The notes below the pieces were generated by a model that was not told where the DNA came from, did no database searches, and saw only the letters and a program-made list of their open reading frames with translations. A stretch of DNA of 63,841 bases, taken from contig JAGVGK010000005.1 in assembly GCA_020057185.1 (NCBI GenBank), forward strand, positions 1 to 63,841. Reading direction: 5' to 3'. A program made the position numbers and the translations under genes. This document shows, piece after piece, positions 4,052-34,963 of this stretch; position 1 is the first letter of the stretch, and the number at the start of each line of letters is the position of its first letter. This DNA is from Minisyncoccota bacterium (lineage in GTDB: Bacteria; Patescibacteriota; Minisyncoccia; Phycocordibacterales; JACOZG01).

Positions 4052-4057
4052 AAAATC

Positions 4058-5985: not shown

Positions 5986-6019
5986 AATATATTTAGGTTC
6001 ACAAATATCCCGACCCAAC

Positions 6020-6230: not shown

Positions 6231-6236
6231 CTTCTG

Positions 6237-6265: not shown

Positions 6266-6294
6266 GCCCAAAGTGGATAACTACTCCTACTTAA

Positions 6295-6303
6295 TGCTAA
6301 AAT
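6295..6303 (+). promoter_or_regulatory. Extended -10 TGCTAAAAT, 6 nt upstream of the ATG at 6310 (leaderless mRNA predicted)
   Basis: tgctaaaat-attccg-ATG; no Shine-Dalgarno sequence. Confidence 0.5.
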
Positions 6304-6309
6304 ATTCCG

Positions 6310-6939: not shown

Positions 6940-6944
6940 ACATT

Positions 6945-6983
6945 TTAAAAAACAGCGAACGGCACCCATTTAGGATGCCGTTC
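6945..6983 (-). terminator. Intrinsic terminator for the O-antigen-ligase-like gene, between convergent genes
   Basis: GAACGGCA-11 nt-TGCCGTTC, followed on the minus strand by gcTGTTTTTT. Confidence 0.7.
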
Positions 6984-7047
6984 AAGTCTGATACTACTAG
7001 TATATCCAAGCCAAACTTCTTGTCAACACTTTTAAGGTAGTGGATAA

Positions 7048-9129
7048 CTACTTGATGATCCCCTGTTTTCTCAAATTAGACATGAAATCTGATAGGGGCT
7101 GTTTAAATTCCGGGTGAGCGACTACAGCCTTCTGCCATAACACCAACAGGGCATTAGACTGATTAATCGTTCCATAGGCTTGAACTAATCTTTCGTCTAA
7201 AAGAGAGACCGGATCGTCTTTCGCGCCGGCGCTTAGAAGCTCCGCGGCGAGTGGTAATTTATTATCATAGATTGCGCCAAGCGCATAAATTTTCCTAGCT
7301 TCGGCAAAAGTGGGTTCGAGCTCGTAGGCCTCACGGAAAAGTGCCAGCGCGTCAGCATACTTCTTTTGATTAATATAAAAACCACCGAGCTCAAAGAGAA
7401 TGGCTTGTTTATGGGGCGACAAACGGCGAGCTTCGATAAGTTCTTTTTCGGCTTCGGCTAACAAACCAATCCGAGAGAAGAAGGAACCGGCGAAGAGACG
7501 ATAGCGCGCGTTCTCGGGTTCGCGTTTGATCGTTTCCAAAATCTGATCGTGAGCCAGAATCAGAATTCCGTTGCGTGTTTCAGCCGGCACGGACTGATCT
7601 TGCCCCACATTAAGCGCCGAGTTAATCAGATGTTCGCTGGCTTCGGTCGAGGCAAAAGTCTGGTAAGCGAAGACTTGTTTGAAACTTTCCAGTTGCTTAT
7701 CCGGATATTTCTGCCAATTTAATGCTTCGATCAGCGTGCGACTAGCTAACCACGGTTTGATGTTAATCCAGTACATGGTCGGCACAAACAAAATAACGAT
7801 GATTAGGGGCGGTAAAAAAGCGGGCACTTTATTTTTGATTAATTTTAAATTACTGGCTGGTAAGAAATTCAGGTTTTTCCCAGTCGAAACAAAGTGCAGA
7901 TAGCCGAGCATCGCCAAGAAAAGCAAATAACTAATTAGATTATCGAAAACAAAAATATTATGAATAAAATAAGCAACCAAAAGCCCAGAAAATAACGCCC
8001 GCTCGATAACAGTAAAACTATTTTTCTTCCACCAGAGATAATAAAAAGCGATGACAAAAAGCGAGAGATAGGCCAAAAGACCTAGCGCGCCCGCGCTGAT
8101 TAACCAGTCGAAGATGACATTGTGCGAACGGTCGAACCACTGTTCTTGGCTGTACATCGCCGGATCATAGTACTTGTTGAAAACCAAAATATAATTCTCC
8201 GGTCCCCAACCGAGAAGCGGCCGTTCTTTGAACCCCTGCCAGCTCATATTCCAGATCATCAATCGCGATTTAGTGGTCTGCTCGGTGAGCGAGATTGAAG
8301 CAAAGCGTTCCAAGACCGGGCTAGACTTAACGAAAGCGCTATCTTTATTTAACCAAAAAACCCCCCCGAGAATCACGGCGCCAAGCAAAACGCCCAACGA
8401 GATTTTTCGCGCCCAGCGATGTGACCGACCAAAAATCGCGATCAAAATGGCGGTGACAATTAAACCACCCACGAGACCGAGCAAAGTACCTCGCGTCCCG
8501 GTGCGATAAAGCACAATCAATTGAAATAAAATAAGCGGTAAATAAATATAAGCAATCGGATTTTGTCGGTAATGCTTGAGCCACAGCCAAGCCGTTAAGA
8601 AAATATGCACCAACATATATACCGCCAGATAAGTCGGATTGCCAAAAGTGCCGTCAATCCGACTCCCGCCCTTGGTCAAAGCCATAATCCCAGCAATGAC
8701 GCTGATCACGATCGAAAGATTCAAAAAATAAAACCAGAGCTTCTCTTTTTTCAAAACCGAAATCAGAACTACAAAATAAGCACCGAGATGAAGAAAATTC
8801 ACCAAACCTTCCATTCGCTCGAAATTACTCCAGAAACTGCGATAAGGATTCGCCCCCCAAGCCGTCGCGAGAGAAATCACTAGAAGGAGCGCCCCCATCG
8901 CGATCAAGATCCATGACTTTTTAGCTTGCCCGCCGATCAGGCGGGGGCGATAATTAGGATCGCGAAGTGCGAGAATAATCCAGAGTGCGAGAATAATCTC
9001 CGTCAACACCCGAAAAAAGAACCCCTTGCCGGTGATAAACGGAAAAAATAGCGAGGTGGAGACAAGAAGGGGGGTGAGGGTCAATAATAATAACCCCGCG
9101 ATAATCCCCCACCGCAAATAATTATTCAT
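7048..9129 (-). CDS. O-antigen ligase/polymerase-like (Wzy_C) membrane protein with C-terminal TPR repeats
   Basis: 693 aa with at least 10 TM helices. Loop YRTGTRGTLLGLVGG. C-terminal TPR-like repeats (…ADALALFREAYELEP…). Confidence 0.75.
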   Translation of the reverse strand: MNNYLRWGIIAGLLLLTLTPLLVSTSLFFPFITGKGFFFRVLTEIILALWIILALRDPNYRPRLIGGQAKKSWILIAMGALLLVISLATAWGANPYRSFWSNFERMEGLVNFLHLGAYFVVLISVLKKEKLWFYFLNLSIVISVIAGIMALTKGGSRIDGTFGNPTYLAVYMLVHIFLTAWLWLKHYRQNPIAYIYLPLILFQLIVLYRTGTRGTLLGLVGGLIVTAILIAIFGRSHRWARKISLGVLLGAVILGGVFWLNKDSAFVKSSPVLERFASISLTEQTTKSRLMIWNMSWQGFKERPLLGWGPENYILVFNKYYDPAMYSQEQWFDRSHNVIFDWLISAGALGLLAYLSLFVIAFYYLWWKKNSFTVIERALFSGLLVAYFIHNIFVFDNLISYLLFLAMLGYLHFVSTGKNLNFLPASNLKLIKNKVPAFLPPLIIVILFVPTMYWINIKPWLASRTLIEALNWQKYPDKQLESFKQVFAYQTFASTEASEHLINSALNVGQDQSVPAETRNGILILAHDQILETIKREPENARYRLFAGSFFSRIGLLAEAEKELIEARRLSPHKQAILFELGGFYINQKKYADALALFREAYELEPTFAEARKIYALGAIYDNKLPLAAELLSAGAKDDPVSLLDERLVQAYGTINQSNALLVLWQKAVVAHPEFKQPLSDFMSNLRKQGIIK

Positions 9130-9991: not shown

Positions 9992-10662
9992 TATTTCTGT
10001 TTTAATACACTCCAAAATTCACCCCAATTAATCTGGTAAGATTCGATTTCCCAACCAGACTCTTTAGTCTCTTTTTCTACATCTTCTAAGGTATACTCAA
10101 GATAATGGGTATCATCCAACTTGTATGGGTAACCATTATCCCGTTTATAAACGGCTACCCATTCACGGGTGATCATAGGCACACGAAGTAAAAGGGTGTC
10201 ACCGAAGAAACCAATTTTTTTAAGTAAGTTAATTCTATCTTCAATGTGCTCAAGAACATTGGACAAAATCAATTTATCAAAATGATTATTGAAGTGATAA
10301 ACGGTAGCGTCACCCACAATAAATTCGAGATTATCTTTTTGGTAATGCTTCTTGGCATAATCAATATTTTGGTCAGAGATATCTATTCCAACTACTTTCT
10401 TCGCTTTCTTGGCCACATCGCAGGCTAACAATCCCCCGCCACAACCAATGTCTAAGATCGTGTCGCCCGGATTGATTCTTGCAGTAAAATAATCGTGATA
10501 TTTGGTGATCTTATGTTTGGGATTAATTCCCCCATTCAAATTGGTAGCATATTCAGTAATTTTTTTATAACTATAATTATGAAGTTTAATGAAAAATCCC
10601 AACAATCGCCTTGTAAACTTAGGCTGATTTTTGATATAACTTTTAATTTTATTTTTAATCAT
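9991..10662 (-). CDS. Class I SAM-dependent methyltransferase
   Basis: ILDIGCGGGLLA and LILSNVLEHI. Confidence 0.85.
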   Translation of the reverse strand: MIKNKIKSYIKNQPKFTRRLLGFFIKLHNYSYKKITEYATNLNGGINPKHKITKYHDYFTARINPGDTILDIGCGGGLLACDVAKKAKKVVGIDISDQNIDYAKKHYQKDNLEFIVGDATVYHFNNHFDKLILSNVLEHIEDRINLLKKIGFFGDTLLLRVPMITREWVAVYKRDNGYPYKLDDTHYLEYTLEDVEKETKESGWEIESYQINWGEFWSVLKQK

Positions 10663-11348
10663 TATAAAAATTTTATAGCATCGGGTCCTTCATTAAAAAG
10701 CAAATCGAGAACAGTTAGCCCTGGAATAAAAGGTGGAAAAAGTTGCCGATATTCTCGCGGATGAAAATTTTGAAACGAGAGTTCTACGCTAGCTTTTTCA
10801 AATTTATCTCGCTCAATATATTTTTTACCTGACGGACCAGATAAAAATTTTGTAGTCCCAACATTTTTGATTATATCTAAAATCGCATCCGTAGAACGTA
10901 ATTCTGAATTAACCTCAAAATCCGATGCCCGATAAAATTTAGCCTTCAAATTTAAAATCTTTGATATGTATTCTATAATCCTGATATTTAAATCAGCAAG
11001 AGTGACGATTATAGAAATATTAGCGTAAAGATTATTAAAAAAGGGCGAATAATCTTTCCAGTAGGGCGCCCTTTGATAGTAAACTTCAAGCGATCGCCAA
11101 TGCTTCTTAGCCCAACGAGTATCATTTGGTAAACTAACATCTTTTAATCTCTTAAACAACTCTGTGTGACCAATAGGAACTGTTAAATAAGTCTGACCGC
11201 CATTGGGTATCTTTATCTTATTACGATTATGAAACCCATCGCGTGAATAAAAGGCTGTATCATAGAAGATAAAAATATCTGATACAACTATTTTGTTAAA
11301 ATAGCCTAACCATGGTAAGTAATCTGGCTGGTGCATGGATACAAACAT
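10662..11348 (-). CDS. WbqC-like family protein
   Basis: N-terminus MHQPDYLPWLGYFNKI is characteristic of the WbqC family. Confidence 0.8.
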   Translation of the reverse strand: MFVSMHQPDYLPWLGYFNKIVVSDIFIFYDTAFYSRDGFHNRNKIKIPNGGQTYLTVPIGHTELFKRLKDVSLPNDTRWAKKHWRSLEVYYQRAPYWKDYSPFFNNLYANISIIVTLADLNIRIIEYISKILNLKAKFYRASDFEVNSELRSTDAILDIIKNVGTTKFLSGPSGKKYIERDKFEKASVELSFQNFHPREYRQLFPPFIPGLTVLDLLFNEGPDAIKFL

Positions 11349-18619: not shown

Positions 18620-19354
18620 TCACTTGACCCACTTAGCAAAATCTTGTAAAAATTGATCCACGACTTCATCGGTTTTAAAGTGCGAAGCCATAACAGAAAA
18701 AAATTTTGGAGGGACAGTGACAATGTGAGCTCCGGCTATGCCCGCGTCGATTATATCCTTAACTCCTCGAATTGAACCGACAATTATTTCTGCTTTGAGC
18801 TTTTGTCGATCGATTATTTCTCTCGTTTTTTTGACAACAATAGCGGGGTCAAAATCTTCCTCACTAAGAATTCCGTCTCTTATTGACTGCTCATATTGCT
18901 TCTTAAATTTGTTATCATTTTTACCATCTCTAATTCTTCCCCAAAACAAACTGACAAATTTTGCTCCAGCTTGGGCTGCTAAAATTGCCTGACCGACAGT
19001 CATACAAGCTGTACAGTTAACAGAAACTCCTTCTTCTGATAACCGGTGGATTATCTCCAACTCATCCCAACCAATCTGGACTTTAACACTAAGCGAAGGT
19101 AACTTAAAAATTTTCTTGAATCTTCGTGCTTGACATAAAATTTTTTTACTATCCTGAGAAAATACTTCGACACTCAGATGGGCCTTGCTGTTGTATCGTC
19201 TGATTAAGCTCACTATTTTTGAGATATGCTTTTCAAACTCAACTTTTGGTTCTTTGGCTAATAGGGATGGGTTAGTTGTTACCCCTCGTACGATACCACG
19301 TTTAAACGCTTTTTCTATATCCTCCAAATTAGCACTATCAATAAATAATTTCAT
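18620..19354 (-). CDS. Short transaldolase / fructose-6-phosphate-aldolase family enzyme
   Basis: MKLFIDSANLEDI, GVTTNPSL and LSVKVQIG. Confidence 0.85.
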   Translation of the reverse strand: MKLFIDSANLEDIEKAFKRGIVRGVTTNPSLLAKEPKVEFEKHISKIVSLIRRYNSKAHLSVEVFSQDSKKILCQARRFKKIFKLPSLSVKVQIGWDELEIIHRLSEEGVSVNCTACMTVGQAILAAQAGAKFVSLFWGRIRDGKNDNKFKKQYEQSIRDGILSEEDFDPAIVVKKTREIIDRQKLKAEIIVGSIRGVKDIIDAGIAGAHIVTVPPKFFSVMASHFKTDEVVDQFLQDFAKWVK

Positions 19355-19995
19355 TTTGAATGTTTTTTCTTTTTAGATAACTTAGTCTGACTAATTAAAT
19401 CTTTTAGGCGAAAAACTATCAAGTGATGCAAAACCACGTGGAAGGATTCCACGTGGGGTGTACTTTCTGCCGGTACTACCACGCAAGTTTGAACTAAATT
19501 TTTCATTGGGCCACCGTCAAAACCAGAGAATCCAATGGTTGAACCCCCTATATCTTTAGCGAACTGGAGACCGCGCAACAAGTTCTGCGACCAAGCACCG
19601 ACCTTATCTTTGCCCGAACCGCCATGAACACTGATGCCAATGACCACACTTTTAGGCATCCAGTAATTTCTTAATTGGGTGATAAAAAGATTTTCCCATC
19701 CCCAATCGTTAGTCGTAGCGCTAACCAGGGGAATATTATCAACCAAGGCGATCGCCTTAATTCCATGATGCATAGGATCATCATTCACTGTCTTGGCTAA
19801 ATCGCTCGCAAAATGTGTCGCGGTTGAAGCAGAGCCACCATTACCCATTAAAAACACCCATCTATGGTTTTTCCAAGCATCAAACAAGATATCAACAATC
19901 TTTGTAATCTGAGTCTCTTGCTCCTTCAATTTTTCTGCAATAAGTTTAGACTCATCAAAATAAGAGTGGACATACGAACGGTTAATCTTTAACAT
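19351..19995 (-). CDS. gmhA: SIS-domain sedoheptulose-7-phosphate isomerase
   Basis: GNGGSASTATHFASDL; about 200 aa. Confidence 0.85.
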   Translation of the reverse strand: MLKINRSYVHSYFDESKLIAEKLKEQETQITKIVDILFDAWKNHRWVFLMGNGGSASTATHFASDLAKTVNDDPMHHGIKAIALVDNIPLVSATTNDWGWENLFITQLRNYWMPKSVVIGISVHGGSGKDKVGAWSQNLLRGLQFAKDIGGSTIGFSGFDGGPMKNLVQTCVVVPAESTPHVESFHVVLHHLIVFRLKDLISQTKLSKKKKHSK

Positions 19996-20053
19996 ATTCT
20001 ATTGATTTTACTACCTCCACAAGAATAAAGCAATCTCTATCTCTCTTCATCAC

Positions 20054-21052
20054 CTATAAACTAAGAACCCTGTGTCTAGCCCCCAATGGATCTAAATTGA
20101 AAAACATTTCTTTCATTCTCGAAGTTTTTAAGACTTGTCGAACATTATTTTTCACTTTTTTTGATCCACAGTAAAACATAAAGTACCCGCCACCACCGGC
20201 ACCCATTATTTTTCCACCGAGTGCGCCGGCTCTTTTTGCTTTCTCATAAATCTCATCAAAAATAGGATTGGATATTTGTCCCGAAATTTCCCTTTTTATT
20301 CTCCAGTGATCATCGAGCAATGTTCCAAAAGATTCTAGGTCACCAGTTTTAAAAGATTCATATATTTCTAAACCAATAGATTTTGTTTTATGTTTGAGCT
20401 CTAACGCCTTTTTATTATCCTGGGCTACAAGGATTTTTGAACTATCTCGCTTTACTCCAGTATAAAAAAATAATGTATTGTCAAAAAATTTTTTACTAAT
20501 TTCTTCTTCTATCTTCGGTTTTGTTATTTTGATGTTTCCATCTTTACTAATATTCAAAGCAGTAAATCCCCCCATGGAACAAAGATAGGGGTCTTGAGGA
20601 CCATCTGGTAATCCTAATTTTCTGGTGATAGAAAAAGATTTTTCCGCTGCGATCTTATTACTAATTTTTTTGCCGGCGAAAACACTTAGCCCTTTTAGCA
20701 AAGCAACGACACAGGCTCCAGAAGAACCGAGACCAGTGCCAGCCGGAGTATCTGCCTTGAATGAGATTGCCACTGAATTATTGATACCGAGGGCTAAAAG
20801 AGCTTCTCTTGCTAATTCATGTTCAACTTTTTTAGGATGATCGACTGTCTCGAATTGACGATAATGGACATGGATTAAGTTATCCGATTTGGTGCTTTTA
20901 ATTAAGATGTCCATGTAAAGATTAATGGTGACACCAAACACAAAACCTCCGTATTTCCTGTAATACGAAGGAAGATCTGTTGACCCTCCACCGAGAGAAA
21001 TTCTGAAAGGAACACGGACCAAAATTATAGGCGAGTTCATATCTATATCCAA
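20054..21052 (-). CDS. hddA: GHMP-family D-glycero-alpha-D-manno-heptose-7-phosphate kinase
   Basis: RISLGGGSTDLP and PAGTGLGSSGACVVAL. Context with gmhA and gmhB supports the call. Confidence 0.75.
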   Translation of the reverse strand: MDIDMNSPIILVRVPFRISLGGGSTDLPSYYRKYGGFVFGVTINLYMDILIKSTKSDNLIHVHYRQFETVDHPKKVEHELAREALLALGINNSVAISFKADTPAGTGLGSSGACVVALLKGLSVFAGKKISNKIAAEKSFSITRKLGLPDGPQDPYLCSMGGFTALNISKDGNIKITKPKIEEEISKKFFDNTLFFYTGVKRDSSKILVAQDNKKALELKHKTKSIGLEIYESFKTGDLESFGTLLDDHWRIKREISGQISNPIFDEIYEKAKRAGALGGKIMGAGGGGYFMFYCGSKKVKNNVRQVLKTSRMKEMFFNLDPLGARHRVLSL

Positions 21053-21103
21053 TTAAACATAGCAAAATAAGTAATAAATGTCTAAGTTAATTCGATGTCA
21101 ACG

Positions 21104-21661
21104 TCAACTGGATTTCCTAGTCGAAAAAACAATTTCTTCCGCCTCAAAGATAGATTTTATGTTAAAATCGGCTTTCGAGCATTCATCCTCAGTTTTTTTT
21201 TGAATAAAAATTGTTTTGCAACCAACATTTTTCCCCACTTGAATATCAGTTAGGCTATCACCAATAAAAAAAGATTCCCTTAGGTTGATTTTCCATTTCT
21301 TTACTGCATCTAAGATCATACCTGGTTTGGGTTTACGACATAGACATTTTCGATTACGTCCATGCGGGCAAACATAAATATCGTCAACTGGCATTTTTTT
21401 AAGAAATCTAGTTATTTTTTTGTGTTCAATAATATTTAGCAATTTATATTCCAAATCAGGTTGATTGGTAATTATTATGCGCAAAAAACCTTTCTGTCCC
21501 AGACGATCAAGAAAGGGAACGATTCCCGCCTTGATCCTTAACTCAGAAAATTTCCAAGGAGCTGTAAAACGAACTTTTTTACCAGCTATCTGGCAATTTT
21601 CTCCTCGGTAAACAAGGTTGTTTATTGTGCCATCTCGATCGAAAAATACTGCCTTATTCAT
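21104..21661 (-). CDS. gmhB: HAD-IIIA D,D-heptose-1,7-bisphosphate phosphatase
   Basis: FFDRDGTIN, ITNQP, CPHGRNRKCLCRKPKPGM and IGDSLTD. Confidence 0.85.
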   Translation of the reverse strand: MNKAVFFDRDGTINNLVYRGENCQIAGKKVRFTAPWKFSELRIKAGIVPFLDRLGQKGFLRIIITNQPDLEYKLLNIIEHKKITRFLKKMPVDDIYVCPHGRNRKCLCRKPKPGMILDAVKKWKINLRESFFIGDSLTDIQVGKNVGCKTIFIQKKTEDECSKADFNIKSIFEAEEIVFSTRKSS

Positions 21662-23639
21662 TTTTTATTCTTTTTAAAATATCTTTACCGGTAGTAACAC
21701 TTGTAATTACCTTCCCACCGAGCACCGAATAACAACCAAACCCATGATAAGTCACTTCGCTAGGGCGGGAATCATTTTTCTTGGAAGATTTGCCAACTGG
21801 TAAAATCGAGTACATTGATTTAACATATTCAGCTCTATCTAAAATAGGAAACCATTTTTTGCATCTATCTCTCATTTTTCCCCAAAGAGAACACTTCGGT
21901 AGTTTTTTCATAATGATTTTATTTCCCCTTTGTCCATTGCCTATTGCCCTAATAGACAAGGGAACATCGCCGAATGTAAACAATTCATTCTCGCCAGTGG
22001 TTACAATAGTCGCAAATGGCCCATCAACAATCGTTGCTGAAAATGGTGATTGTTTAGGAATACGAATCAAAATAACTTCCTTAAACCTGAGCTCAATATC
22101 TTTTTTAGCAAAGCCAAGCCAATTAGGTAATAAATTATAATTGGAATAGGTGCAATTAATTACGTAATCGAAGCTTCCATTTTTTTTCATACAACCGTTC
22201 GTAAAATATAATTTCTTTTGGCCATCAGGCATTAATTCAGAATTGGTTACTGAGGAGTTTAATTTTAAAACTATCTTTTTCTTTTTTAATTTTTTTGTAA
22301 TGATGTCAAATAAAGTTTTGTAATTATATATTCCCTCTTTTACTCTAAAACAACCGTCAATACTATTTCCATTGATTATCTTACTATCTGGCACAACATC
22401 TTCACATGGAAGATCAAAATTTGAGCAAAATTTGATGAAATCTTTTTTGGAAGTTAGAGAGTTTTTCTTTGCAACACAATAATAGCTTTTAAAATCATGT
22501 TTTACTGCCTTTCCGTACCACTCTTCAAAATCCTTTGTGGCGTTAACAATTTCTTGGACCGTTTCTGGACTGCGCGGGTAATGATAGCCCGAATGATGCC
22601 GATATTGATTCAACCGGGTAGCTTCTAACAATAGGTTTTTATTTTTTTCAAAAAGAGTCACTTCAAAATTATCACTTAGGGCTATAGCTGCAGTAACTCC
22701 AAAAATGCCTCCACCGATTACTGCCACCCTGTCTTTATCACGATTCGAACTTTTGGTCACCAAATTTGTGGTGCTAACAACTCTTTCTCCCACGACCCCA
22801 TCTGGATATGGAATATCACTATTATTAATTAGCCTTAAAAAAGTCTCGAGTTCGGATTTCAATGGTTCCTTAGCCAACAGGCAAACAATTTTTCTGTTAG
22901 TTTTTACCCCCTTCAGAATAATTATCCCTGTCTGAAAATCTATCGTGAGACATTCATCCTTGAAATTAAATTTTAATAATCTTTCTTTAATTTTATCCAA
23001 CCAGCCCACATTAAAATTGGCATCAATATTATTTGAATATCTTATACTTGTTTTTATAAAACTCTTTCCTCTGCTCGACCAAACCTTACACACCCTTGAG
23101 TTGAAAAAATAATCCATCATATCCCACCAGTGTAATTCTTCAAATGCCGGCTTCTCTCCGCGCCAAGTGTTTATTGGGCTTACAAATGATCCTTCTACGC
23201 TTATCGGTAACGGTCTTTTTTTGAGTATTTTTTTAATAGCCTCAACCGCTGGATGGAATCTAAAAATGTGTCCAACCATTAATTTGTTGTTCGTCTTCTT
23301 TGCTAATTCAATTAATTTTCTCGCTTGTTTACTATTTTCTACGAGCGGTTTTTCTACAAAAACATTGCAAAATTTAATACACCGGCTTACAAGTTCGAAA
23401 TGGGTACTGCTTGGTGTAACAACAATGACAGCATCTGCCATTTTTAACAAACTAGTCAATACACTAGTAAAAACAGGAAAAATTATTTTGGAAGACAATT
23501 CGCGCGCGCTCTTTTCTTTATCCACAATTACAGCAATAAATTCAATCACACCCCTAGCGTGGAAATCCGAGAGAATTCTTAGATGATTCTTACCAAATCT
23601 TCCAGCCCCGATGAGAATAATTTTGGGGGGTTGAGTCAT
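21654..23639 (-). CDS. Fusion protein: Gfo/Idh/MocA-type NAD(P) oxidoreductase + FAD-dependent oxidoreductase
   Basis: First dinucleotide fold KIILIGAGRFGKNH. Second fold RVAVIGGGIFGVTAAIAL at about residue 305. Confidence 0.65.
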   Translation of the reverse strand: MTQPPKIILIGAGRFGKNHLRILSDFHARGVIEFIAVIVDKEKSARELSSKIIFPVFTSVLTSLLKMADAVIVVTPSSTHFELVSRCIKFCNVFVEKPLVENSKQARKLIELAKKTNNKLMVGHIFRFHPAVEAIKKILKKRPLPISVEGSFVSPINTWRGEKPAFEELHWWDMMDYFFNSRVCKVWSSRGKSFIKTSIRYSNNIDANFNVGWLDKIKERLLKFNFKDECLTIDFQTGIIILKGVKTNRKIVCLLAKEPLKSELETFLRLINNSDIPYPDGVVGERVVSTTNLVTKSSNRDKDRVAVIGGGIFGVTAAIALSDNFEVTLFEKNKNLLLEATRLNQYRHHSGYHYPRSPETVQEIVNATKDFEEWYGKAVKHDFKSYYCVAKKNSLTSKKDFIKFCSNFDLPCEDVVPDSKIINGNSIDGCFRVKEGIYNYKTLFDIITKKLKKKKIVLKLNSSVTNSELMPDGQKKLYFTNGCMKKNGSFDYVINCTYSNYNLLPNWLGFAKKDIELRFKEVILIRIPKQSPFSATIVDGPFATIVTTGENELFTFGDVPLSIRAIGNGQRGNKIIMKKLPKCSLWGKMRDRCKKWFPILDRAEYVKSMYSILPVGKSSKKNDSRPSEVTYHGFGCYSVLGGKVITSVTTGKDILKRIKNE

Positions 23640-26236: not shown

Positions 26237-26911
26237 TTACTTTCTATTATTAAACTTGTCAATATCGTAGACTGTTGAAAAGGAAAGATTATCAACCCCT
26301 GGAATTAAATATACATCATTAGTGTGAATAAACTCAGACATCATATCAGTAAGATATATTTCCTTTGCATGACAAACAACAATTTGATAATTAAAAATAT
26401 CAGAGCTAGCTAAAATTAAACCACCAGCCACTAAATTAGAAGTTGGCATTTTCGGTTTTTCAGTAATTGAAGAAATTCTTCCCGCTTTATCTAAAGTTAT
26501 CACTGCTGAATTTTGAGGATAATCGAAATGACGACAAAGCCAACTAAATTCATGGACCAAGCAATGTTCAACATCTTGTTTGGTTAAAAGCTCATCACCA
26601 TAGACAATAAAAAAACGCTCGTGATCAGAAAAGTATTTCTTAGCCAACAATAAGGCCGGTCCTGTCCCGTTTAATGTTTCTTGCCTCTCGAATTTAAAAG
26701 ACATTCCATAATATTTTTTGTTGAGGAAATCTATGATTTGATCACCGCGATAGCCAACTACGACTATTATCTCATCAACGAAATCTATTAAGGATTCAAC
26801 AATATGCTCCAAGAAACTTCGTCCCGAAATTTTTACCAACGGTTTAGGAATTTTATCCGTTAATGGTCTCATCCTACTCCCCCTGCCTGCGGCTAAAATA
26901 ACTGCTTTCAT
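26237..26911 (-). CDS. Sugar-1-phosphate nucleotidyltransferase (HddC-like heptose-1-P guanylyltransferase candidate)
   Basis: MKAVILAAGRGSRMRPLTDKIPKPL; 224 aa. Specificity is inferred from context. Confidence 0.75.
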   Translation of the reverse strand: MKAVILAAGRGSRMRPLTDKIPKPLVKISGRSFLEHIVESLIDFVDEIIVVVGYRGDQIIDFLNKKYYGMSFKFERQETLNGTGPALLLAKKYFSDHERFFIVYGDELLTKQDVEHCLVHEFSWLCRHFDYPQNSAVITLDKAGRISSITEKPKMPTSNLVAGGLILASSDIFNYQIVVCHAKEIYLTDMMSEFIHTNDVYLIPGVDNLSFSTVYDIDKFNNRK

Positions 26912-28421: not shown

Positions 28422-29378
28422 TTAATTAATTCGATAATATTCCTTCATCCATTGGATAGTCCGCTTAATTCCCTCATTCAAGTCAACAGTCTGCTTTAAA
28501 TTGAGCTGTTTCGCCGCTCGAGAAGCATCTACCTTTTTATTTTTAGTGGTTAAAATTTCTGACTCTTGATAGTGAAGTAAAGATTTTTTTGCCCCACTGT
28601 GCTTAAGAACCAAATCAGCTAGAAGTTCAATGTCGTGCTCTTCACCGCCAGCAATATTATAAATTTCCCCCGATTTAAAATCGTCTACAATATTTGCCAA
28701 GGCATTGGCAGTATCTTCAAGATAAGTAGAAGTCCGAGTATGGCCACGATAAATAACTATCGGTATGCCAAAAAGCAAATGGTAACAAAATTTACAATTT
28801 ACACTCCGATATGGATGATACCACTCACCCGGTCCGTAAGTATTGAAGAGTCTAACTATAACTGTTTCGGTCCCATGTTTTATTTTTGAATTCCGGATTT
28901 GTTGTTCATTAACCCATTTAGACAAAGCGTAATCATTCAACTGTTTGACCTCATATTTATCCATTACATCTTCAGACATAACCTGATCAAAATCGCCATA
29001 AACTTCAGAGGAAGAAAAGTGGATTAATTTAAAACCCAATTTCTCTTGCAAGCGAATAATGTTTTTCGTTCCGATTGCATTGGAACGCCAAACTTGTTCA
29101 TAAAAATCTTCACCATTCCAGCGACCAAACTCAGCAGCACAGTGGTAAACAAAATCAAATGGGCTGGCTTTTTGGAAAACTCTCTCCAGCTGTCTAAAAT
29201 CCGCTACATCACAGCGAGAATAGTAAAACTTACCTTTAGACATAGGGTGTTCCCAACCAACTTCGCCCAAATCGTGAGAAAGATCTAACCCAAAAACATT
29301 ATGTCCCCGCTCACCAAGAACCTTAGTGAGCCAAGACCCCACCACCCCCTTACTACCAGTAATCAGTATGCGTGACAT
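28422..29378 (-). CDS. NAD-dependent sugar epimerase/dehydratase (extended SDR)
   Basis: ILITGSKGVVGSW and YALSK. Confidence 0.85.
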   Translation of the reverse strand: MSRILITGSKGVVGSWLTKVLGERGHNVFGLDLSHDLGEVGWEHPMSKGKFYYSRCDVADFRQLERVFQKASPFDFVYHCAAEFGRWNGEDFYEQVWRSNAIGTKNIIRLQEKLGFKLIHFSSSEVYGDFDQVMSEDVMDKYEVKQLNDYALSKWVNEQQIRNSKIKHGTETVIVRLFNTYGPGEWYHPYRSVNCKFCYHLLFGIPIVIYRGHTRTSTYLEDTANALANIVDDFKSGEIYNIAGGEEHDIELLADLVLKHSGAKKSLLHYQESEILTTKNKKVDASRAAKQLNLKQTVDLNEGIKRTIQWMKEYYRIN

Positions 29379-29473: not shown

Positions 29474-30190
29474 TCAATCGGAACCGGGGAAATCCCAATT
29501 TGGGGTTTCAACGATTTCCTTTCGGTTTTTAAAATAAAAGAATACTTCCTGAAATGTAGCGGCAAATCCCCGGCGAATGTGATCCTCAATTTTGAGAGCA
29601 TCGGTCATTGCCGACTCAAAACAGGTCGCCATCTTGACTCCTTGACTACCAAGTATGGGCGCCCACCAGTTTGTCGCTTTCGGGAGAAGCATTCGGTAAT
29701 CGATCCAGTATCTCACTTCCTTCATTGCAGCCACGAGATATGGGAACATTCTTCCGCCGTGATAAGCGACGGAGACACTTCCGACGTTCTCGAATCGATG
29801 CTCTTCGGCCTTTCTTACAATGGCCAATGCTTCTTCTTTGGAGTTGGTGATCGGATCCATAACAATCAGATCACCTCGACTGGCGCCATGTGATACTAAC
29901 TCTTGGACAAGGGCATCCGAACCAATCCAAGCCGATTGTGGGGTTGAACCACTAGTCGCTCGTCCATCCCCGCCAACTACCCAAATAGGACATTGATACC
30001 GACGACCCATTCCAACTGCATGATCAAACAAACTACCTTCTTGGTACATTCCTTGAGATAGACCGTGAACCGCCACGGCATCAAGTTTATCTGGTTCATC
30101 ACTCATACAAGCAAAAGTAATGGCTATTTGTGCCACCGAGACGGACTTCTCTACCAATGCTAATGTAAACGGATCGACTGATCGCCCCAT
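29474..30190 (-). CDS. Hypothetical protein, DUF218/YdcF-like candidate
   Basis: IWVVGGDG...SGS and ITNSKEEALAI resemble the YdcF pattern. Visibly higher GC than neighbouring genes. Has its own terminator. Confidence 0.4.
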   Translation of the reverse strand: MGRSVDPFTLALVEKSVSVAQIAITFACMSDEPDKLDAVAVHGLSQGMYQEGSLFDHAVGMGRRYQCPIWVVGGDGRATSGSTPQSAWIGSDALVQELVSHGASRGDLIVMDPITNSKEEALAIVRKAEEHRFENVGSVSVAYHGGRMFPYLVAAMKEVRYWIDYRMLLPKATNWWAPILGSQGVKMATCFESAMTDALKIEDHIRRGFAATFQEVFFYFKNRKEIVETPNWDFPGSD

Positions 30191-30294
30191 CACAACACCA
30201 TCCTTTCAATCAAAGAACTCCTCTTGAATCAGTTTCGCTAGCCAATTTAATCCTAACACACTGTACCTAAAATCACAATCCCACTTCCAAAATT

Positions 30295-31032
30295 TCAAGA
30301 CCTTTCGATAACCGAGACGCCACGCTGTTGAACCACCCGAGAAGCACACTTATTTGCGAATTTGATAGCATCTTCAATATTATTAGTTTCAGCATATTTT
30401 ACTAAAAGGGCAGCAAAAAAACTGTCACCAGCGCCAGATAAATCTTTAACCTCTACCTTATCCACTGGATACGATTTCCCCTGAAAAGTTGCCCCAAGAT
30501 CGCCTTTAGTACAGATTATTTTATTAACTAGGGAATTGGGTATTGATGATTTTGAACGCTCGTATTCATAATTGTTTATCTTAATAAACTTGGCTTTTTC
30601 GGCCCAATGACCGAGAACTTTTTTAGTATCCACAAAAACATTGCTGTGATTTTTACATAAATAAGCGATATCATCTTCTGTCAAAAATCCTTTATTGTAA
30701 TCGGAGACAGCAATGATATCGTACATCAGTGGAATTTTTTGAATCACCACTCGCGGAATATGATGATCCGTATCTACGCGCATAAAAGCGTGATTACTAC
30801 CTCGATGCATGTAACGAGTTTTAGTGACTAGTTTCCAACCATCATTGGTCACAATATCACAGGCCTTATAGATATTTTTTACATTGCGTTCCACATTCTT
30901 GGCCATTCCTGGATTTTCTATCTGCTCGATCACGCTCAATACTGGAATCGGCAAATCGGGGGCTAAACGATCGGCATTACAATAAACAAAAATATCTTTA
31001 CAGCTTTCACCAACAATAAGTATTTTTTTCAT
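30295..31032 (-). CDS. PfkB-family sugar kinase, HldA/RfaE-domain-I-like
   Basis: N-terminus ILIVGESCKDIFVY..RLAPDLPIPVL resembles heptose-7-P kinases. GAGDSF signature present. Short, at 245 aa. Confidence 0.65.
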   Translation of the reverse strand: MKKILIVGESCKDIFVYCNADRLAPDLPIPVLSVIEQIENPGMAKNVERNVKNIYKACDIVTNDGWKLVTKTRYMHRGSNHAFMRVDTDHHIPRVVIQKIPLMYDIIAVSDYNKGFLTEDDIAYLCKNHSNVFVDTKKVLGHWAEKAKFIKINNYEYERSKSSIPNSLVNKIICTKGDLGATFQGKSYPVDKVEVKDLSGAGDSFFAALLVKYAETNNIEDAIKFANKCASRVVQQRGVSVIERS

Positions 31033-32084
31033 AATGTTACGGTGGGTGCCATGTGTAGTTCTTCAAATGTAAGTTTGGTATCAATTTTAGGTTTGTTAAG
31101 AATATTGAGTATGGCGTTAGCGACATTTACCTTAGTTGGATACCAAAACTCGCTTAGCGCCGACGAAGTTGGACACGGTACATCAGGACACGCCAGTGAT
31201 TGTGGCGTGACCATAAACTCTACACCCCCCTGTACCGCTTTGGCGATAACCTCGGAACCAACAGAAAAAGCCGAGCTAGTTGTGTCAACTGTAAGCAATC
31301 GTCTAGTCTTTTTAAGCGAGGCGGAGATAGTCTTGTGGTCAATAGGATTGAGTGATACCAAATCGATAAGTTCGACCCTTGTTGTATCTCCTATGAGTTC
31401 CAGAGCTTGACGAGCAGCAAACAACGCATCACCATAACTTACTACAGTTATATCACTCCCTTTTTTAATAATACGCGCCTTATTGAGAGACACCTCGTAT
31501 AATTCTTCTGGCACCTGTTCTTTAACACCGTACAGCCAGCGTGGCTCAAGCATAACTACCGGATCATCCGCACGCACAGCAGCGATAAGAAGTCCTTTGG
31601 CAGTATAAGGCGATGACGGGATAACTACGCGCAATCCCATCACACCACCGAACATCCCATAAAAGGCCTGCGAGTGTTGTGGACCATTTCCCCACTGTCG
31701 CCCCACTACAATACGCAAAGTAACAGGGGCTGAACCACCATTACCACCAAACATATATCGCCATTTAGCTGCCTGGGTAAACATCTGATCGGATGCCAAA
31801 AGGGAGAACTCCACCCGGTCATGAAAAACTATCGGTCGCAACCCACCAATAGAAGCACCTACCGCTAGACCCGTAAGGGCCGCTTCACTTGTGGGCATAT
31901 CGAGCACACGATTGGGATATATTTGTGCAAGACTACCCACACCACCAGTACCTTGCGGAACACCGAGTCCCAGTACTAACACGCGTGGATCGCTTACCAA
32001 CAGTTGTTCTGTCGCTTCTTTAAGCGCGTCAGCATATTTAATAGGTTCGCGTACATTTGTTCGTCCGTTTTTAGTTGTAGACAT
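31029..32084 (-). CDS. TPP-dependent dehydrogenase E1 component, beta subunit
   Basis: LDMPTSEAALTGLAVGASIGGLRPIV. ATG at 32084 preferred. Confidence 0.85.
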   Translation of the reverse strand: MSTTKNGRTNVREPIKYADALKEATEQLLVSDPRVLVLGLGVPQGTGGVGSLAQIYPNRVLDMPTSEAALTGLAVGASIGGLRPIVFHDRVEFSLLASDQMFTQAAKWRYMFGGNGGSAPVTLRIVVGRQWGNGPQHSQAFYGMFGGVMGLRVVIPSSPYTAKGLLIAAVRADDPVVMLEPRWLYGVKEQVPEELYEVSLNKARIIKKGSDITVVSYGDALFAARQALELIGDTTRVELIDLVSLNPIDHKTISASLKKTRRLLTVDTTSSAFSVGSEVIAKAVQGGVEFMVTPQSLACPDVPCPTSSALSEFWYPTKVNVANAILNILNKPKIDTKLTFEELHMAPTVTL

Positions 32085-33042
32085 TTGTGTAAAGTTCTTC
32101 TTTAGACGGGTATGGTTGCTCAAGCGCCCAAGCAATATCAGTACATATTTTCTGGCGTAAGTTTTCTTCCTCTTTTGCTAGTTTTTTTTCCAAAACGCCA
32201 CTCATCACAATTTTTATTTTTAATTTTTTAAGCGGATCTTTCTTGAGTCGCTCTTCTAACACATCCCCCGTGCGATGCTTTTCTTCCATAAGTGGGGTCG
32301 AGTGCGCCATATGACGATACACTAAACATTCAAGCACTGCCGGCCCTCCTCCTTTACGAATCGATCCTACAAGTTTGACTGTCTTAGTATATACATCCTC
32401 ATAATCATTGCCATCTGCATGCTCATACTTCACCCCCAACCCGGTCGCAATTTTTTCGAGATTGTAGCCTTGAGATCGACGATTCTTAATGGGCGAGTTG
32501 ATAGACCACTGATTATTTTCTAACACAAAAAGAATTGGGACCTTACGGAGCGCGGCAAGATTGTATGTCTCGTATACAACACCTTCTTCTGAGGCACCAT
32601 CGCCATAAAACACCGCTACAACACCTGGTTTGCCTAAATACTTTTGCGCAAAAGCAACCCCGGTAGCGATAGGCACTGCGCTTCCAAGTAATGGTGAGGA
32701 TCCAGTAAAATTAACCGAGCGATCTACTTGGTGCATTGAACCACCCTTGCCGTGAGCTGAACCAGTGACACGACCAAAAAGTTCGGCCGCTAACATACGG
32801 AAACTCCCCCCTTTAGCTAAGTAATGCCCGTGTGAACGGTGCGTACCCATCACTTGGTCATCAACCTTTAAGGCATCGCACACTCCAGTAGCTACTGCTT
32901 CTTGCCCTATATAAAAATGAACCATGCTAAAAACTTTTTTATTCAAATAATGCTTGACTAACTCCTCCTGAGCCACACGAAGGCGCAACATGTGGCTATA
33001 GGCTTTGTGAAAATCGATCATATCTTTTTTTAAATAAGCCAT
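32071..33042 (-). CDS. TPP-dependent dehydrogenase E1 component, alpha subunit
   Basis: TPP motif GDGASEEGVVYETYNLAALRKVPILFVLENNQW; also GKGGSMH. Confidence 0.88.
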   Translation of the reverse strand: MAYLKKDMIDFHKAYSHMLRLRVAQEELVKHYLNKKVFSMVHFYIGQEAVATGVCDALKVDDQVMGTHRSHGHYLAKGGSFRMLAAELFGRVTGSAHGKGGSMHQVDRSVNFTGSSPLLGSAVPIATGVAFAQKYLGKPGVVAVFYGDGASEEGVVYETYNLAALRKVPILFVLENNQWSINSPIKNRRSQGYNLEKIATGLGVKYEHADGNDYEDVYTKTVKLVGSIRKGGGPAVLECLVYRHMAHSTPLMEEKHRTGDVLEERLKKDPLKKLKIKIVMSGVLEKKLAKEEENLRQKICTDIAWALEQPYPSKEELYTNVYN

Positions 33043-33048
33043 GTTAGT

Positions 33049-34080
33049 TTACATCACAATTAAGATGCGACTTGCTTGTCCAGCACGTACTTGTTCAATA
33101 GCATTATTAATATCATTGAGTTTGACATGTTTGGTAATAATCCCATCGGTTTTTAGCATTCCAGCCTTGGCAAGTCGAACATAACGGGGAATATCTTTAC
33201 TTGGAACAAACCTGCCCCCTTGGGTAGCACGGACACTTTTCCCCTCACCACCAAAAAGGTGATTGGCATTCAAGAGTTCTATTGTTTGCCCTGGTTGAGG
33301 TTGCCCAACCATTACATATCGACCAATCCCCGAGAGAAGCGGTATAGTTGACTCAATCGCCTGTTTAGCGCCAGAACACTCAATAATAACATCGACATCT
33401 TTAAGACCGACTGTTCCAATCATTTTTGAAATATCTTCCTTCGCTGTGTTAATAAAAAGGTTAGCGCCCATCGACAGTGCCAACTCCTTCTTGGGGTCGT
33501 GAATGTCGACCGAGATAATGGGATAAGCGCCAGCAAGTTGGGCCGCTTTTATAAGATTTATGCCAAGACCTCCCGCCCCCACGATCATTACACTTTCACC
33601 AAATTTAACATGCGCTTCCTCATTAATAGTACCAAGCGCGGTTGAAAGACTACAGCCCAAGAGTGCGCATAACTCCTCGGGGGTATCTAACGGAACAGAT
33701 GTCAGGCGATTTTCGGAACAAATAGAATACTCACTAAAGGTTGTAACTTTACCACTTTTAATCCGCTTGCCCTTATACTCGTACTCGGGAAAATCAGACT
33801 CTATTCCCTGACCCTGTCGCCAATGCATCACCACCTTGTCACCTTTTTTAACACGAGTGACGCCAACACCCACATCCTCCACAAAACCACACCCTTCGTG
33901 CCCCATCAAATGGGGCACGAACTTGGCATTCCCTTTGTTCCCAGCAATTTCCTGCAATTGGGCGCCACAAATACCACTGACTAATATCCTGACCAAGACC
34001 TGACCGAATTGAAGCGGGGTTAATTTTACCTCTCCAATAACCAGCGGCATGTTAATTTTTTCGAGAACAGCAGCTTTCAT
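33049..34080 (-). CDS. Zinc-type medium-chain alcohol dehydrogenase
   Basis: GHEGCGFVEDVG and VGAGGLG. Confidence 0.88.
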   Translation of the reverse strand: MKAAVLEKINMPLVIGEVKLTPLQFGQVLVRILVSGICGAQLQEIAGNKGNAKFVPHLMGHEGCGFVEDVGVGVTRVKKGDKVVMHWRQGQGIESDFPEYEYKGKRIKSGKVTTFSEYSICSENRLTSVPLDTPEELCALLGCSLSTALGTINEEAHVKFGESVMIVGAGGLGINLIKAAQLAGAYPIISVDIHDPKKELALSMGANLFINTAKEDISKMIGTVGLKDVDVIIECSGAKQAIESTIPLLSGIGRYVMVGQPQPGQTIELLNANHLFGGEGKSVRATQGGRFVPSKDIPRYVRLAKAGMLKTDGIITKHVKLNDINNAIEQVRAGQASRILIVM

Positions 34081-34150: not shown

Positions 34151-34963
34151 ATGTCGAGTATCATCCTACTTTTACCTTTCGGATTAGGCGACCACATTAT
34201 CTGTCACAGTATTGTTCGCGAACACTGTGTTAAATACGAACGGGTGACAATTTTTGCCGAACCACGCAACATAGAAACAGTGAAATTTATGTATCGTGAC
34301 TTAAAAAACCTAATAATTATCGCGGGGAATAAAAGCTTTGCCAAAAATTTTATTTTATCGCATCTTGCTATCAACGCTCCCGCGACAGTTACCCCTAGGT
34401 ATGAATATCTAAAAATCATCGGGTTCCAATATTTTAATCCCCACTCTGGTGTGTTGTTTGAACAACAAGAATATCAACTGGCTGGATTAGATTTGGAAAA
34501 AAAATGGAGTGGTTTTAAGATTGATAGGGATTTAATTAGGGAACAACAACTCCTCAAAAAATCTGGCATAAGGGGAGAATACGTTTTTTTGCATGAAGAC
34601 CGTTCTAGAAATTATATTATTAACAGAAACCTAATTAGCAAAAAGTTTAATTTTTTTGTTCCCAAGCCGCAAATGACTGATAATATGTTTGATTACTGTA
34701 CCATTATAGAAAAGGCTAAGGAAATTCATGTGATAGATTCTTCTTTTATGTTTTTAATTGATGTATTAAATTACAACAATCCAGAACAAAAATTATATAT
34801 CCATCGTTATGCTAGACCAAACATTGAATGGAAATTACCTATTCTTAAGAAAAATTGGCAAATTATAGATATGGGGTACAGCAAACTAAGTCAGTACCTG
34901 CGCAACAGCATTTTCTCAGCCAAACAAACTATCCACAGGGTTTGGAATGTATGTTCATGTTAG
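34151..34963 (+). CDS. Hypothetical protein, weakly GT9 (heptosyltransferase)-like
   Basis: LPFGLGDHII and IHVIDSSFMFL loosely resemble the GT9 GDxx and DSGxxHLA regions. Confidence 0.35.
   Translation: MSSIILLLPFGLGDHIICHSIVREHCVKYERVTIFAEPRNIETVKFMYRDLKNLIIIAGNKSFAKNFILSHLAINAPATVTPRYEYLKIIGFQYFNPHSGVLFEQQEYQLAGLDLEKKWSGFKIDRDLIREQQLLKKSGIRGEYVFLHEDRSRNYIINRNLISKKFNFFVPKPQMTDNMFDYCTIIEKAKEIHVIDSSFMFLIDVLNYNNPEQKLYIHRYARPNIEWKLPILKKNWQIIDMGYSKLSQYLRNSIFSAKQTIHRVWNVCSC

Follow-up and report, generated by a model that had tools for sequence, protein, structure and literature searches.

An E1-type thiamine enzyme pair coupled to a zinc-dependent alcohol dehydrogenase and a compact heptose-type kinase in surface-glycan loci of Patescibacteria and in cyanophages: a candidate module for two-carbon transfer to sugars

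Pairs of E1alpha and E1beta subunits that resemble the E1 component of pyruvate dehydrogenase (PDH) and act on sugars have been described as alphaKADH2 enzymes. They include AlmDI/DII (aldgarose), AviB1/AviB2 (eurekanate), Pau11/Pau12 (paulomycose), and KbDH-alpha/beta (amycolose) and add pyruvate-derived acetyl branches to keto-sugars, which was shown in vitro for KbDH; the acetyl branch is later reduced in the paulomycin pathway by the aldo-keto reductase Pau7 and also in the trioxacarcin and avilamycin pathways (PMC12247030, PMC4753412). In the biosynthesis of yersiniose, a sugar of the Yersinia O-antigen, YerE transfers a pyruvate-derived two-carbon (C2) unit to a keto-sugar in a thiamine diphosphate (ThDP)-dependent reaction, followed by ketoreduction to a 1-hydroxyethyl group (PMC4753412, PMC12247030). 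The analogous orphan E1 genes CBU_0692/0693 of Coxiella have been mentioned merely as horizontally acquired "pyruvate dehydrogenases" (PMC5423948). In this paper, we describe a gene cassette on contig JAGVGK010000005.1 of a Minisyncoccota bacterium (assembly GCA_020057185.1), whose 63,841 nucleotides, the whole stretch of DNA analysed, are termed the window. The cassette encodes a zinc-dependent alcohol dehydrogenase (ADH), an E1alpha/E1beta pair, and a small PfkB-type kinase and lies among genes for glycosyltransferases, methyltransferases, a flippase, and nucleotide-sugar enzymes. To our knowledge, the formation of carbon-carbon bonds on sugars by stand-alone E1 pairs has been described solely for antibiotic pathways of actinomycetes, where KbDH is the one pair that has been assayed in vitro. 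A literature search retrieved no description of the cassette, nor of E1 enzymes of Patescibacteria in glycan loci.

On balance, the ADH and the E1 pair probably constitute a lipoyl-independent carboligase module which places a pyruvate-derived C2 unit on a heptose-pathway sugar, at a carbonyl group, and in which the ADH is the redox partner. By architecture and gene context, the cassette can be likened to the alphaKADH2 pairs, as a two-subunit PDH-E1-like ThDP enzyme without E2 and E3 is encoded within a sugar-biosynthesis cluster; by analogy, pyruvate would be expected as the C2 donor for bond formation at a sugar carbonyl, and a separate oxidoreductase corresponding to Pau7 would be expected to act on the new branch. 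The alphaKADH2 pairs serve nucleoside diphosphate (NDP)-4-keto or 3-keto deoxysugars of secondary metabolites, and the reductase is an aldo-keto reductase where known, whereas the cassette occurs in cell-surface glycan loci of the candidate phyla radiation (CPR, Patescibacteria) and in cyanophages, has a zinc-dependent ADH devoid of the structural-zinc lobe and sometimes fused to E1alpha, includes an HldA-like kinase, and is accompanied by no conserved dehydratase. With YerE it would share ThDP-dependent C2 transfer to a sugar of a surface polysaccharide, but YerE, a flavoprotein, belongs to the decarboxylase (acetolactate-synthase-like) superfamily, consists of a single chain instead of an E1alpha/E1beta pair, and acts on CDP-3,6-dideoxy-4-keto-glucose. 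The acetoin dehydrogenase subunits AcoA/AcoB (acetoin:dichlorophenolindophenol oxidoreductase, Ao:DCPIP) have the same fold and subunit composition, and aco operons also pair the E1 with a zinc-dependent medium-chain dehydrogenase/reductase (Zn-MDR); these operons, however, encode E2 (AcoC) and E3 and are catabolic. Finally, the kinase, nucleotidyltransferase, isomerase, and transferase fold found around the cassette recall the ADP-heptose pathway (GmhA, HldA/HldE, GmhB, HldC, and a glycosyltransferase of family 9, GT9), from which the cassette differs by a kinase shorter by about 65 residues, by GmhA being mostly absent or replaced by a cupin, and by an ADH/E1 step that has no counterpart there.

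The E1 pair stands alone, without E2, lipoyl, or E3 partners. Searches with the PFAM profiles of the E2 catalytic domain (PF00198), the lipoyl domain (PF00364), and the E3 dimerisation domain (PF02852) gave zero matches in the whole 782,866-bp genome, which is 98.8% complete, and positive results in control genomes; the absence of E2 and E3 genes that a preliminary description of this DNA had noted for the window thus extends to the entire genome, in which E1_dh genes are present in a single copy. In the larger cassette-bearing genomes, E2 genes are located elsewhere and not at the cassette, and in genuine PDH and aco reference loci E2 is adjacent to E1. Since the genome provides no lipoyl acceptor, the hydroxyethyl-ThDP intermediate must be either protonated or passed to a carbon electrophile. 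The pair itself consists, as in the alphaKADH2 enzymes, of separate E1alpha (PP domain) and E1beta (Pyr and C-terminal domain) subunits and appears catalytically intact: in E1alpha, the ThDP motif GDG(147-149)-X26-NN(176-177) is complete and the catalytic His247, which aligns with His263 of human PDHA1, is kept, as is the histidine H137 in the "QHSQ" motif of E1beta. Both subunits score below the curated thresholds of the corresponding models, E1alpha with 276 bits against the PDH model TIGR03182 (cut-off 394) and E1beta with 213 bits against NF006667 (cut-off 321). The nearest sequence relatives are pyruvate- and acetoin-type E1s. Homologs are named acetoin or pyruvate dehydrogenase in databases, and their names assign the genome to Patescibacteria (CPR); in addition, the E1 proteins show weak matches to the profiles of 1-deoxy-D-xylulose-5-phosphate synthase (DXS) and transketolase.

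For the phylogenetic placement, an E1alpha tree of 61 sequences was calculated with IQ-TREE. References were the AcoA/AcoB, AcoC, and butanediol dehydrogenase set of Paracoccus and the equivalent set of Rhodococcus, PdhA/B with E2 and E3 of Sinorhizobium, a lipoyl-linked pair of Thermus, and a CPR E1 with an adjacent E2. Fifty cassette E1alpha proteins form a single clade (SH-aLRT 98), whose sister is a second group of CPR glycan-locus E1s from four loci (L062, L063, L064, and L071; our numbering). In this sister group, GalE- or dehydratase-like short-chain dehydrogenases/reductases (SDRs) are translationally coupled to E1alpha or follow E1beta, and an ADH of the cassette family (38-43% identity) lies a few kilobases away. 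Cassette and sister clade together (SH-aLRT 99) are separated by a branch of 0.92 substitutions from AcoA, PdhA, human PDHA1, and the CPR E1 with adjacent E2. Acetoin dehydrogenase E1 is the nearest E2-linked group in the tree, the E1alpha being 34-35% identical to AcoA, but with two AcoA and two PdhA sequences sampled the cassette proteins fall outside both and do not cluster with acetoin dehydrogenases. Together with the lack of E2, lipoyl, and E3 genes in the genome, this position led us to reject a catabolic dehydrogenase complex, which the preliminary description had named as the alternative to be excluded. An E1 on a Thermus plasmid, the best match in PLSDB (39%), was likewise rejected as a cultured representative of the cassette, as it adjoins a lipoyl-domain gene and transporter genes and is catabolic. 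The E1alpha sequences of a 1.7-kb contig binned as "Nanoarchaeota" (L048) and of a contig binned as "Rheinheimera" (L050) are nested inside the CPR cassette clade, which reflects either mis-binning or recent horizontal transfer. In the sister-group locus L071 (genome G193, positions 1852-8959), the gene order is a KpsF-type arabinose-5-phosphate isomerase (SIS and CBS domains), an unknown gene, an SDR, E1alpha, E1beta, a GmhA-like SIS protein, and an SDR; it is another link of orphan E1 pairs to sugar-phosphate isomerases.

The ADH is a zinc-dependent enzyme of the medium-chain type without the structural-zinc lobe. The nearest solved structures are class III/P ADHs, in comparison with which it is short by about 25 residues, including all four structural-zinc cysteines; the segment is cysteine-free in every relative (37 family members), whereas C38, H61/E62, and C143, which bind the catalytic zinc, do not vary within the same set. 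The resulting Cys-His(Glu)-Cys catalytic site is of the class I/III type. An origin as the butanediol dehydrogenase of an ancestral aco operon was considered and rejected, since the ADH is 25% identical to genuine butanediol dehydrogenase and shows no specific relationship to it. In five species (L009, L024, L043, L053, and L055), the ADH stop codon has been lost and ADH and E1alpha are joined in frame by a short linker. The N-terminal extension of a 593-residue "ADH" in L007 was not counted as an informative fusion, because it looks like a spurious upstream extension of the open reading frame (ORF).

A scan with one genome per species yielded 53 related loci, 52 of them with a cassette-type E1alpha, and 33 with enough flanking sequence to serve as the full-length set for neighbour counts; neighbour families were defined by de novo clustering. 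The hosts are almost all CPR bacteria of the Paceibacteria type, besides a few Verrucomicrobia, one deltaproteobacterium, and one gammaproteobacterial bin. Zn-ADH, E1alpha, and E1beta form an invariant triad: E1beta is present in all 33 full-length loci, and the ADH is found directly upstream of E1alpha in 32. The compact kinase follows E1beta in 20 of the 33 full-length CPR loci, three more having a full-length HldA, and a homolog of the GT9-like gene that is divergently oriented in the window occurs in 19 of the 33 (its family, hyp270, in 19-25 loci). A further partner, which always lies beside the GT9-like gene and for which modelling predicts a NodZ/FUT1/POFUT1 fucosyltransferase fold, was detected in 14 loci. 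Kinase, GT9-like gene, and this partner remain with ADH-E1 despite local rearrangements (L011, L016, L036). Other recurrent partners are an HldC-like protein of the CTP_transf_like type (cytidylyltransferase fold; 16 of the 52 loci), a canonical GT9 enzyme (10 loci), a putative phosphatase of the EEP family encoded directly after E1beta (10 loci), and FkbM methyltransferases. An SIS/GmhA isomerase (L012, L017, L028, L031, L034, L040, L047, L050) and a 125-residue cupin (L011, L014, L016, L019, L025, L032, L045, L058) each occur in eight loci and never together, which suggests non-orthologous replacement of a sugar-phosphate isomerase. Every related locus examined has a glycan context with glycosyltransferase, methyltransferase, flippase, or ABC-Wzt genes. 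No 4,6-dehydratase or other nucleotide-sugar dehydratase is conserved in type or position across the cassette loci. The cassette is rare and patchily distributed: of 400 further Patescibacteria genomes, sampled evenly, only six gave E1alpha matches at E <= 1e-30, all with 35-41% identity. As a side observation, a gene set that may serve carrier-protein-dependent acylation of the glycan lies behind the cassette in L005 (14859-18954) and also in L011, L016, and L023, there downstream of the HldC-like gene; it encodes a phosphopantetheinyl transferase, FkbH-like and carrier proteins, a MaoC dehydratase, a ketoreductase, and in L005 also an MBOAT.

The cassette is also found in viruses. ADH homologs with 54-56% identity are encoded by the cultured cyanomyoviruses S-SM2 and P-TIM68, and in both genomes, as in 78 of the 80 viral contigs examined below, an E1-type thiamine enzyme is flanked by this ADH and the compact kinase (52-63% identity). 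The gene order in S-SM2 (L072) is ADH (56%), a 402-residue mini-E1, one unknown gene, and a 243-residue PfkB protein (56% identical to the kinase in the window); an SDR, an HldC-like protein, a nucleotidyltransferase, a class II aldolase, and GmhA are encoded further downstream and a weak homolog of the GT9-like gene upstream. The mini-E1 (positions 10015-11223) combines half of the E1_dh PP domain with a Transket_pyr domain in a single chain and has no E1beta C-terminal domain. In IMG/VR, 225 contigs encode the ADH, 80 of which were examined for neighbours (L075-L154): the compact kinase lies just downstream in 78, and the thiamine enzyme is present in the mini form in 62 and as a split E1alpha/E1beta pair (46-50% identity) in seven, while HldC is encoded by 51 and GmhA by 38. 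The phage genes have been annotated merely as heptose-related lipopolysaccharide genes (PMC7378029). From the viral and CPR contexts taken together, the true core is ADH, E1-type thiamine enzyme, and compact kinase, usually amid heptose-activation genes.

The kinase is of an HldA (heptose-7-phosphate kinase)-like type. Its best family is TIGR02198 (rfaE_dom_I, domain I of HldE), although the score of 105 bits is far under the cut-off of 345, and its best match in the PDB is HldA of Burkholderia (4E84), with which it aligns across the N-terminal motif and the GAGD region. Both the GAGD motif and the N-terminal motif GDxxxD...R(I/L)xP(D/E)xPxP are kept, and their columns are invariant in the family alignment. 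Compared with the roughly 310 residues of HldA, the 245-residue protein lacks about 65 residues owing to the deletion of four segments. GmhA is encoded in 10 of 29 cassette-bearing CPR genomes and, where present, adjoins the cassette. No HAD phosphatase of the GmhB type, for which no dedicated search was made, was noted among the recurrent cassette partners.

The positions of the features in the window are listed in Table 1.

Table 1 Features in and around the cassette (positions refer to the 63,841-nucleotide window)
Feature	Position	Strand	Remarks
GT9-like gene (hyp270 family)	34151-34963	plus	270 aa; divergent from the ADH unit; unannotated
ADH gene	33049-34080	minus	343 aa; PF08240 and PF00107; first gene of the unit
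E1alpha gene	32071-33042	minus	323 aa; PF00676 (195 bits)
E1beta gene	31029-32084	minus	ATG start; PF02779 and PF02780; longest ORF begins at TTG, position 32135
PfkB kinase gene	30295-31032	minus	245 aa
hyp239 gene	29474-30193	minus	239 aa; last gene before the terminator-like hairpin
Terminator-like hairpin	29445-29422	minus	stem of 10 pairs (7 G-C), then a T run
Promoter-like site	29415-29388		after the hairpin, ahead of the SDR gene
SDR gene	28422-29378		UDP-xylose synthase-like
NTP-transferase gene	26237-26911		HddC-like nucleotidyltransferase; may belong with the candidate supply route
Oxidoreductase fusion gene	21654-23639		661 aa; GFO/IDH/MocA domain fused to a DAO-type FAD oxidoreductase
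Candidate supply route	18620-21661	minus	transaldolase, SIS/GmhA-like isomerase, GHMP kinase, HAD phosphatase (Pfam); contiguous
Match to TIGR00441 (gmhA)	19414-19896		87 bits

The ORF coordinates agree with the block of four genes, separated by at most 6 nt or overlapping, that had been described before: ADH and E1alpha are 6 nt apart, E1alpha and E1beta overlap by 14 nt, and E1beta and the kinase gene overlap by 4 nt (ATGA). As the hairpin, a strong one, lies 3' of the hyp239 gene, the local transcription unit looks like five genes rather than four; a promoter-like site lies behind it, and as the overall numbers of such sites do not exceed shuffled expectation, this is suggestive at most. 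The earlier impression that the cassette genes are more GC-rich than the glycosyltransferase genes around them needs qualification. ADH (0.45), E1alpha (0.43), and E1beta (0.47) do lie above the island in which they are set (0.38), yet merely at the genome-wide mean (0.46), and the PfkB gene (0.375) is island-like, as is the divergent GT9-like gene (0.343). The hyp239 gene has a GC content of 0.48, closer to ADH and E1 than to the island.

The product of the divergent gene has no match in Pfam (even at E <= 0.01 and including PF01075) or NCBIfam. Its AlphaFold2 model (pLDDT 89.5) retrieved GT9 enzymes, namely TibC, WaaF, WaaC, and a Veillonella GT9 protein, as all of the top 14 matches of a Foldseek search of the PDB (E = 8e-5 to 6e-4, TM 0.40-0.53, probability 1.00), and according to this prediction it is a small GT-B protein with a GT9 (heptosyltransferase)-like fold. 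For hyp239, no match was found in Pfam, NCBIfam, or the PDB, and nine relatives, all apparently from CPR, were retrieved among 5.8 billion proteins. Its gene adjoins the cassette in L073, is on the opposite strand at a distance of about 5.5 kb in L030, and lies elsewhere in L074; as a rare orphan family with inconsistent linkage, it was rejected as a cassette member. The SDR behind the hairpin closely resembles Mth373 of Methanothermobacter (PDB 8W3U/9AR1; E = 4.6e-90), which has been assigned as UDP-xylose synthase (UXS; PMC12820599). The same SDR was recovered in no more than two of the related loci (L030 and probably L073), and the genome contains no homolog of UDP-glucose dehydrogenase (UDP-glucose 6-dehydrogenase). 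Owing to its UXS-like nature, its restriction to two other loci, its position behind the hairpin, and the lack of UDP-glucose dehydrogenase, the SDR was rejected as a 4,6-dehydratase feeding the E1 pair. The oxidoreductase fusion gene of the window has a parallel of a kind in the gammaproteobacterial locus L050, where a separate DAO-type oxidoreductase (7713-8909) is encoded immediately upstream of the ADH. The contiguous transaldolase, isomerase, GHMP kinase, and HAD phosphatase genes are a possible supply route for the cassette, which is suggested by the heptose association seen in other loci. Together with the NTP-transferase gene, this set corresponds in its logic not only to the GDP-heptose route but also to the lincosamide octose pathway (LmbR/N/P/K/O), and by this analogy its product could be an octose instead of a heptose.

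In the mechanism that we propose, the E1 pair would decarboxylate a 2-oxo acid, presumably pyruvate, on ThDP. Without the lipoyl arm of an E2, the hydroxyethyl or acetyl carbanion would not simply be released but would attack a carbonyl carbon, presumably that of a heptose-pathway sugar, with formation of a C-C bond. The ADH would provide the redox step, in which it may oxidise a sugar hydroxyl to the carbonyl acceptor, reduce the acetyl group once attached to 1-hydroxyethyl, or perform both reactions. The sugar so formed, or a precursor of it, would pass through the compact HldA-like kinase, nucleotide activation would be due to the HldC-like nucleotidyltransferase in most relatives and here perhaps to the NTP-transferase, and the GT9-like transferase would attach the activated sugar to the surface glycan; where the C2 transfer falls relative to phosphorylation and nucleotide activation can be conceived in more than one way. 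The orphan state of the E1 pair, its constant glycan context, its position outside AcoA and PdhA, and its tight partnership with the ADH make C2 transfer to a sugar the best reading. Several observations weigh against it. The function of every member of the cassette is read from sequence and context; no keto-sugar-forming enzyme such as a 4,6-dehydratase is conserved that would define the acceptor; both catalytic histidines that true E1s use for lipoyl reduction are kept; and with a kinase so far below the HldA cut-off, its substrate is a guess. As GmhA is encoded by only about a third of the CPR carriers, the "heptose" may not be canonical D-glycero-D-manno-heptose; the genome described here, although it has a GmhA-like gene, contains neither HldC nor the cupin and neither the EEP protein nor the c11-type GT9.

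The preliminary description had proposed an AviB/AlmD-like C2 branch. The idea of C2 transfer by an orphan E1 pair in glycan loci is upheld by the placement of the E1 outside AcoA and PdhA and by the ADH partnership and fusions, but the analogy presupposes that a 4,6-dehydratase supplies an NDP-4-keto-6-deoxy-sugar as acceptor. Since no such gene is conserved and heptose-pathway partners are found instead, the analogy is not supported as stated. In its strict form, a 4,6-dehydratase or C4 oxidase would provide an NDP-4-keto (or 3-keto) sugar, the E1 pair would add an acetyl branch with formation of a tertiary alcohol, the ADH would reduce the branch to 1-hydroxyethyl, and the kinase would act only in the upstream activation route. 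This chemistry has precedent (PMC12247030), the sister-clade E1 pairs are SDR-coupled and have a member of the cassette ADH family close by, about 23 cassette loci contain a GMD-like SDR no more than 9 kb away, and in the window the UXS-like SDR lies 1 kb downstream and belongs to a type whose catalytic cycle proceeds via a UDP-4-keto-pentose (PMC12820599). We nevertheless regard it as doubtful, since the SDRs near the cassette differ in type, position, and strand while the kinase gene comes after that of the thiamine enzyme in most CPR loci and in 78 of the 80 viral ones, and since the SDR of the window is set apart by the hairpin, recurs beside the cassette only in L030 and probably L073, and has no UDP-glucose dehydrogenase in the genome to feed it. 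Alternatively, the sugar may be extended before activation: the ADH would oxidise the terminal CH2OH group of a free or phosphorylated sugar to the aldehyde, the E1 pair would add the C2 unit to give an acyloin, the ADH-bound NADH would reduce it, and the omega-deoxy higher sugar so formed, having no distal phosphate, would be phosphorylated at C1 by the kinase without any need for GmhA or GmhB. This specific sequence, which we consider unlikely, would account for the ADH-E1alpha fusions as a means of channelling a reactive intermediate, for a kinase that is part of the core and shortened relative to HldA, for the absence of GmhA from about two thirds of the cassette-bearing CPR genomes and of a GmhB-type phosphatase among the recurrent partners noted (no specific search having been made), and for a Cys-His-Cys zinc site resembling that of primary-alcohol ADHs. 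It is purely inferential, and we know of no characterised thiamine-dependent chain extension of a sugar of this kind; moreover, GmhA and HldC are frequent in the viral cassettes, GmhA may merely have been missed in metagenome-assembled genomes, and the cupin may stand in for it. As to the order of steps in general, action before activation is favoured by the kinase being kept more tightly than any SDR and being shortened, by the absence of GmhA in most CPR carriers, and by the fusions in five species, whereas the SDR-coupled sister clade and the frequency of GmhA and HldC in viruses favour an NDP-keto-sugar. We tentatively put forward as possible an undescribed sugar pathway of lobe-less Zn-ADH, E1-type thiamine enzyme, and compact HldA-like kinase, common to CPR and a few further bacteria as well as to abundant marine cyanomyoviruses, in which ADH and thiamine enzyme would channel a not-yet-activated sugar through oxidation to a carbonyl, addition of a pyruvate-derived C2 unit, and re-reduction to a nine-carbon or omega-deoxy higher sugar that would then be 1-phosphorylated, nucleotide-activated, and transferred by GT9-like enzymes.

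Two further explanations were considered. DXS and transketolase are homologs of the E1 enzymes, which decarboxylate 2-oxo acids, and Zn-MDR enzymes acting on sugar phosphates are established in the families of the ribulose-5-phosphate reductase TarJ and galactitol-1-phosphate dehydrogenase. The E1 pair might decarboxylate a sugar-derived 2-oxo acid (e.g. a 2-keto-3-deoxy-aldonate) or form a 1-deoxy-ketose phosphate as DXS does, with the ADH interconverting aldehyde or ketone and alcohol and a deoxy-sugar or alditol phosphate being activated and transferred. The weak DXS and transketolase matches and the KpsF-type isomerase near the E1 in L071 fit such a route, but it is quite improbable, as no gene for the formation of 2-oxo sugar acids is conserved with the cassette and the closest relatives are pyruvate- and acetoin-type E1s. 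A role in energy metabolism, either as a fermentative pyruvate decarboxylase which together with the ADH yields ethanol or as the remnant E1 of an acetoin or pyruvate dehydrogenase with a butanediol dehydrogenase, could be read from the database names of the homologs, from the ethanol-fermentation logic of an ADH next to a pyruvate-decarboxylating enzyme, and from the Zn-MDR butanediol dehydrogenase in genuine aco operons. It is the least credible of the explanations and hardly to be expected, as the ADH has just 25% identity to butanediol dehydrogenase, no E2 or E3 is present, and none of the six E1alpha matches among the 400 Patescibacteria genomes is closer than 41% identity. Sugar tailoring is to be preferred to a fermentative enzyme or an acetoin remnant because the cassette is invariably located in glycan loci, is translationally coupled to a sugar kinase, recurs in phage glycan clusters, is patchily distributed, and is distant from the E2-linked enzymes.

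In the cassette, an E1-type enzyme is fixed together with a dedicated dehydrogenase and a heptose-type kinase. It is found in surface-glycan loci of uncultured, ultra-small bacteria, and a miniaturised fused form of it occurs in the cultured ocean cyanophages S-SM2 and P-TIM68 and in hundreds of viral contigs, which makes the question testable in laboratory phage-host pairs. If C2 transfer is the true function, it would explain genes to which metabolic reconstructions of CPR bacteria routinely give the wrong name of pyruvate or acetoin dehydrogenase, would provide new small carboligases for biocatalysis, and would predict an unreported C2-modified heptose-type sugar on the surfaces of CPR bacteria and of phage-infected cyanobacteria. 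Should the product indeed be a nine-carbon or omega-deoxy sugar, both this class of surface sugar and the thiamine-dependent reaction leading to it would be unreported for any polysaccharide.

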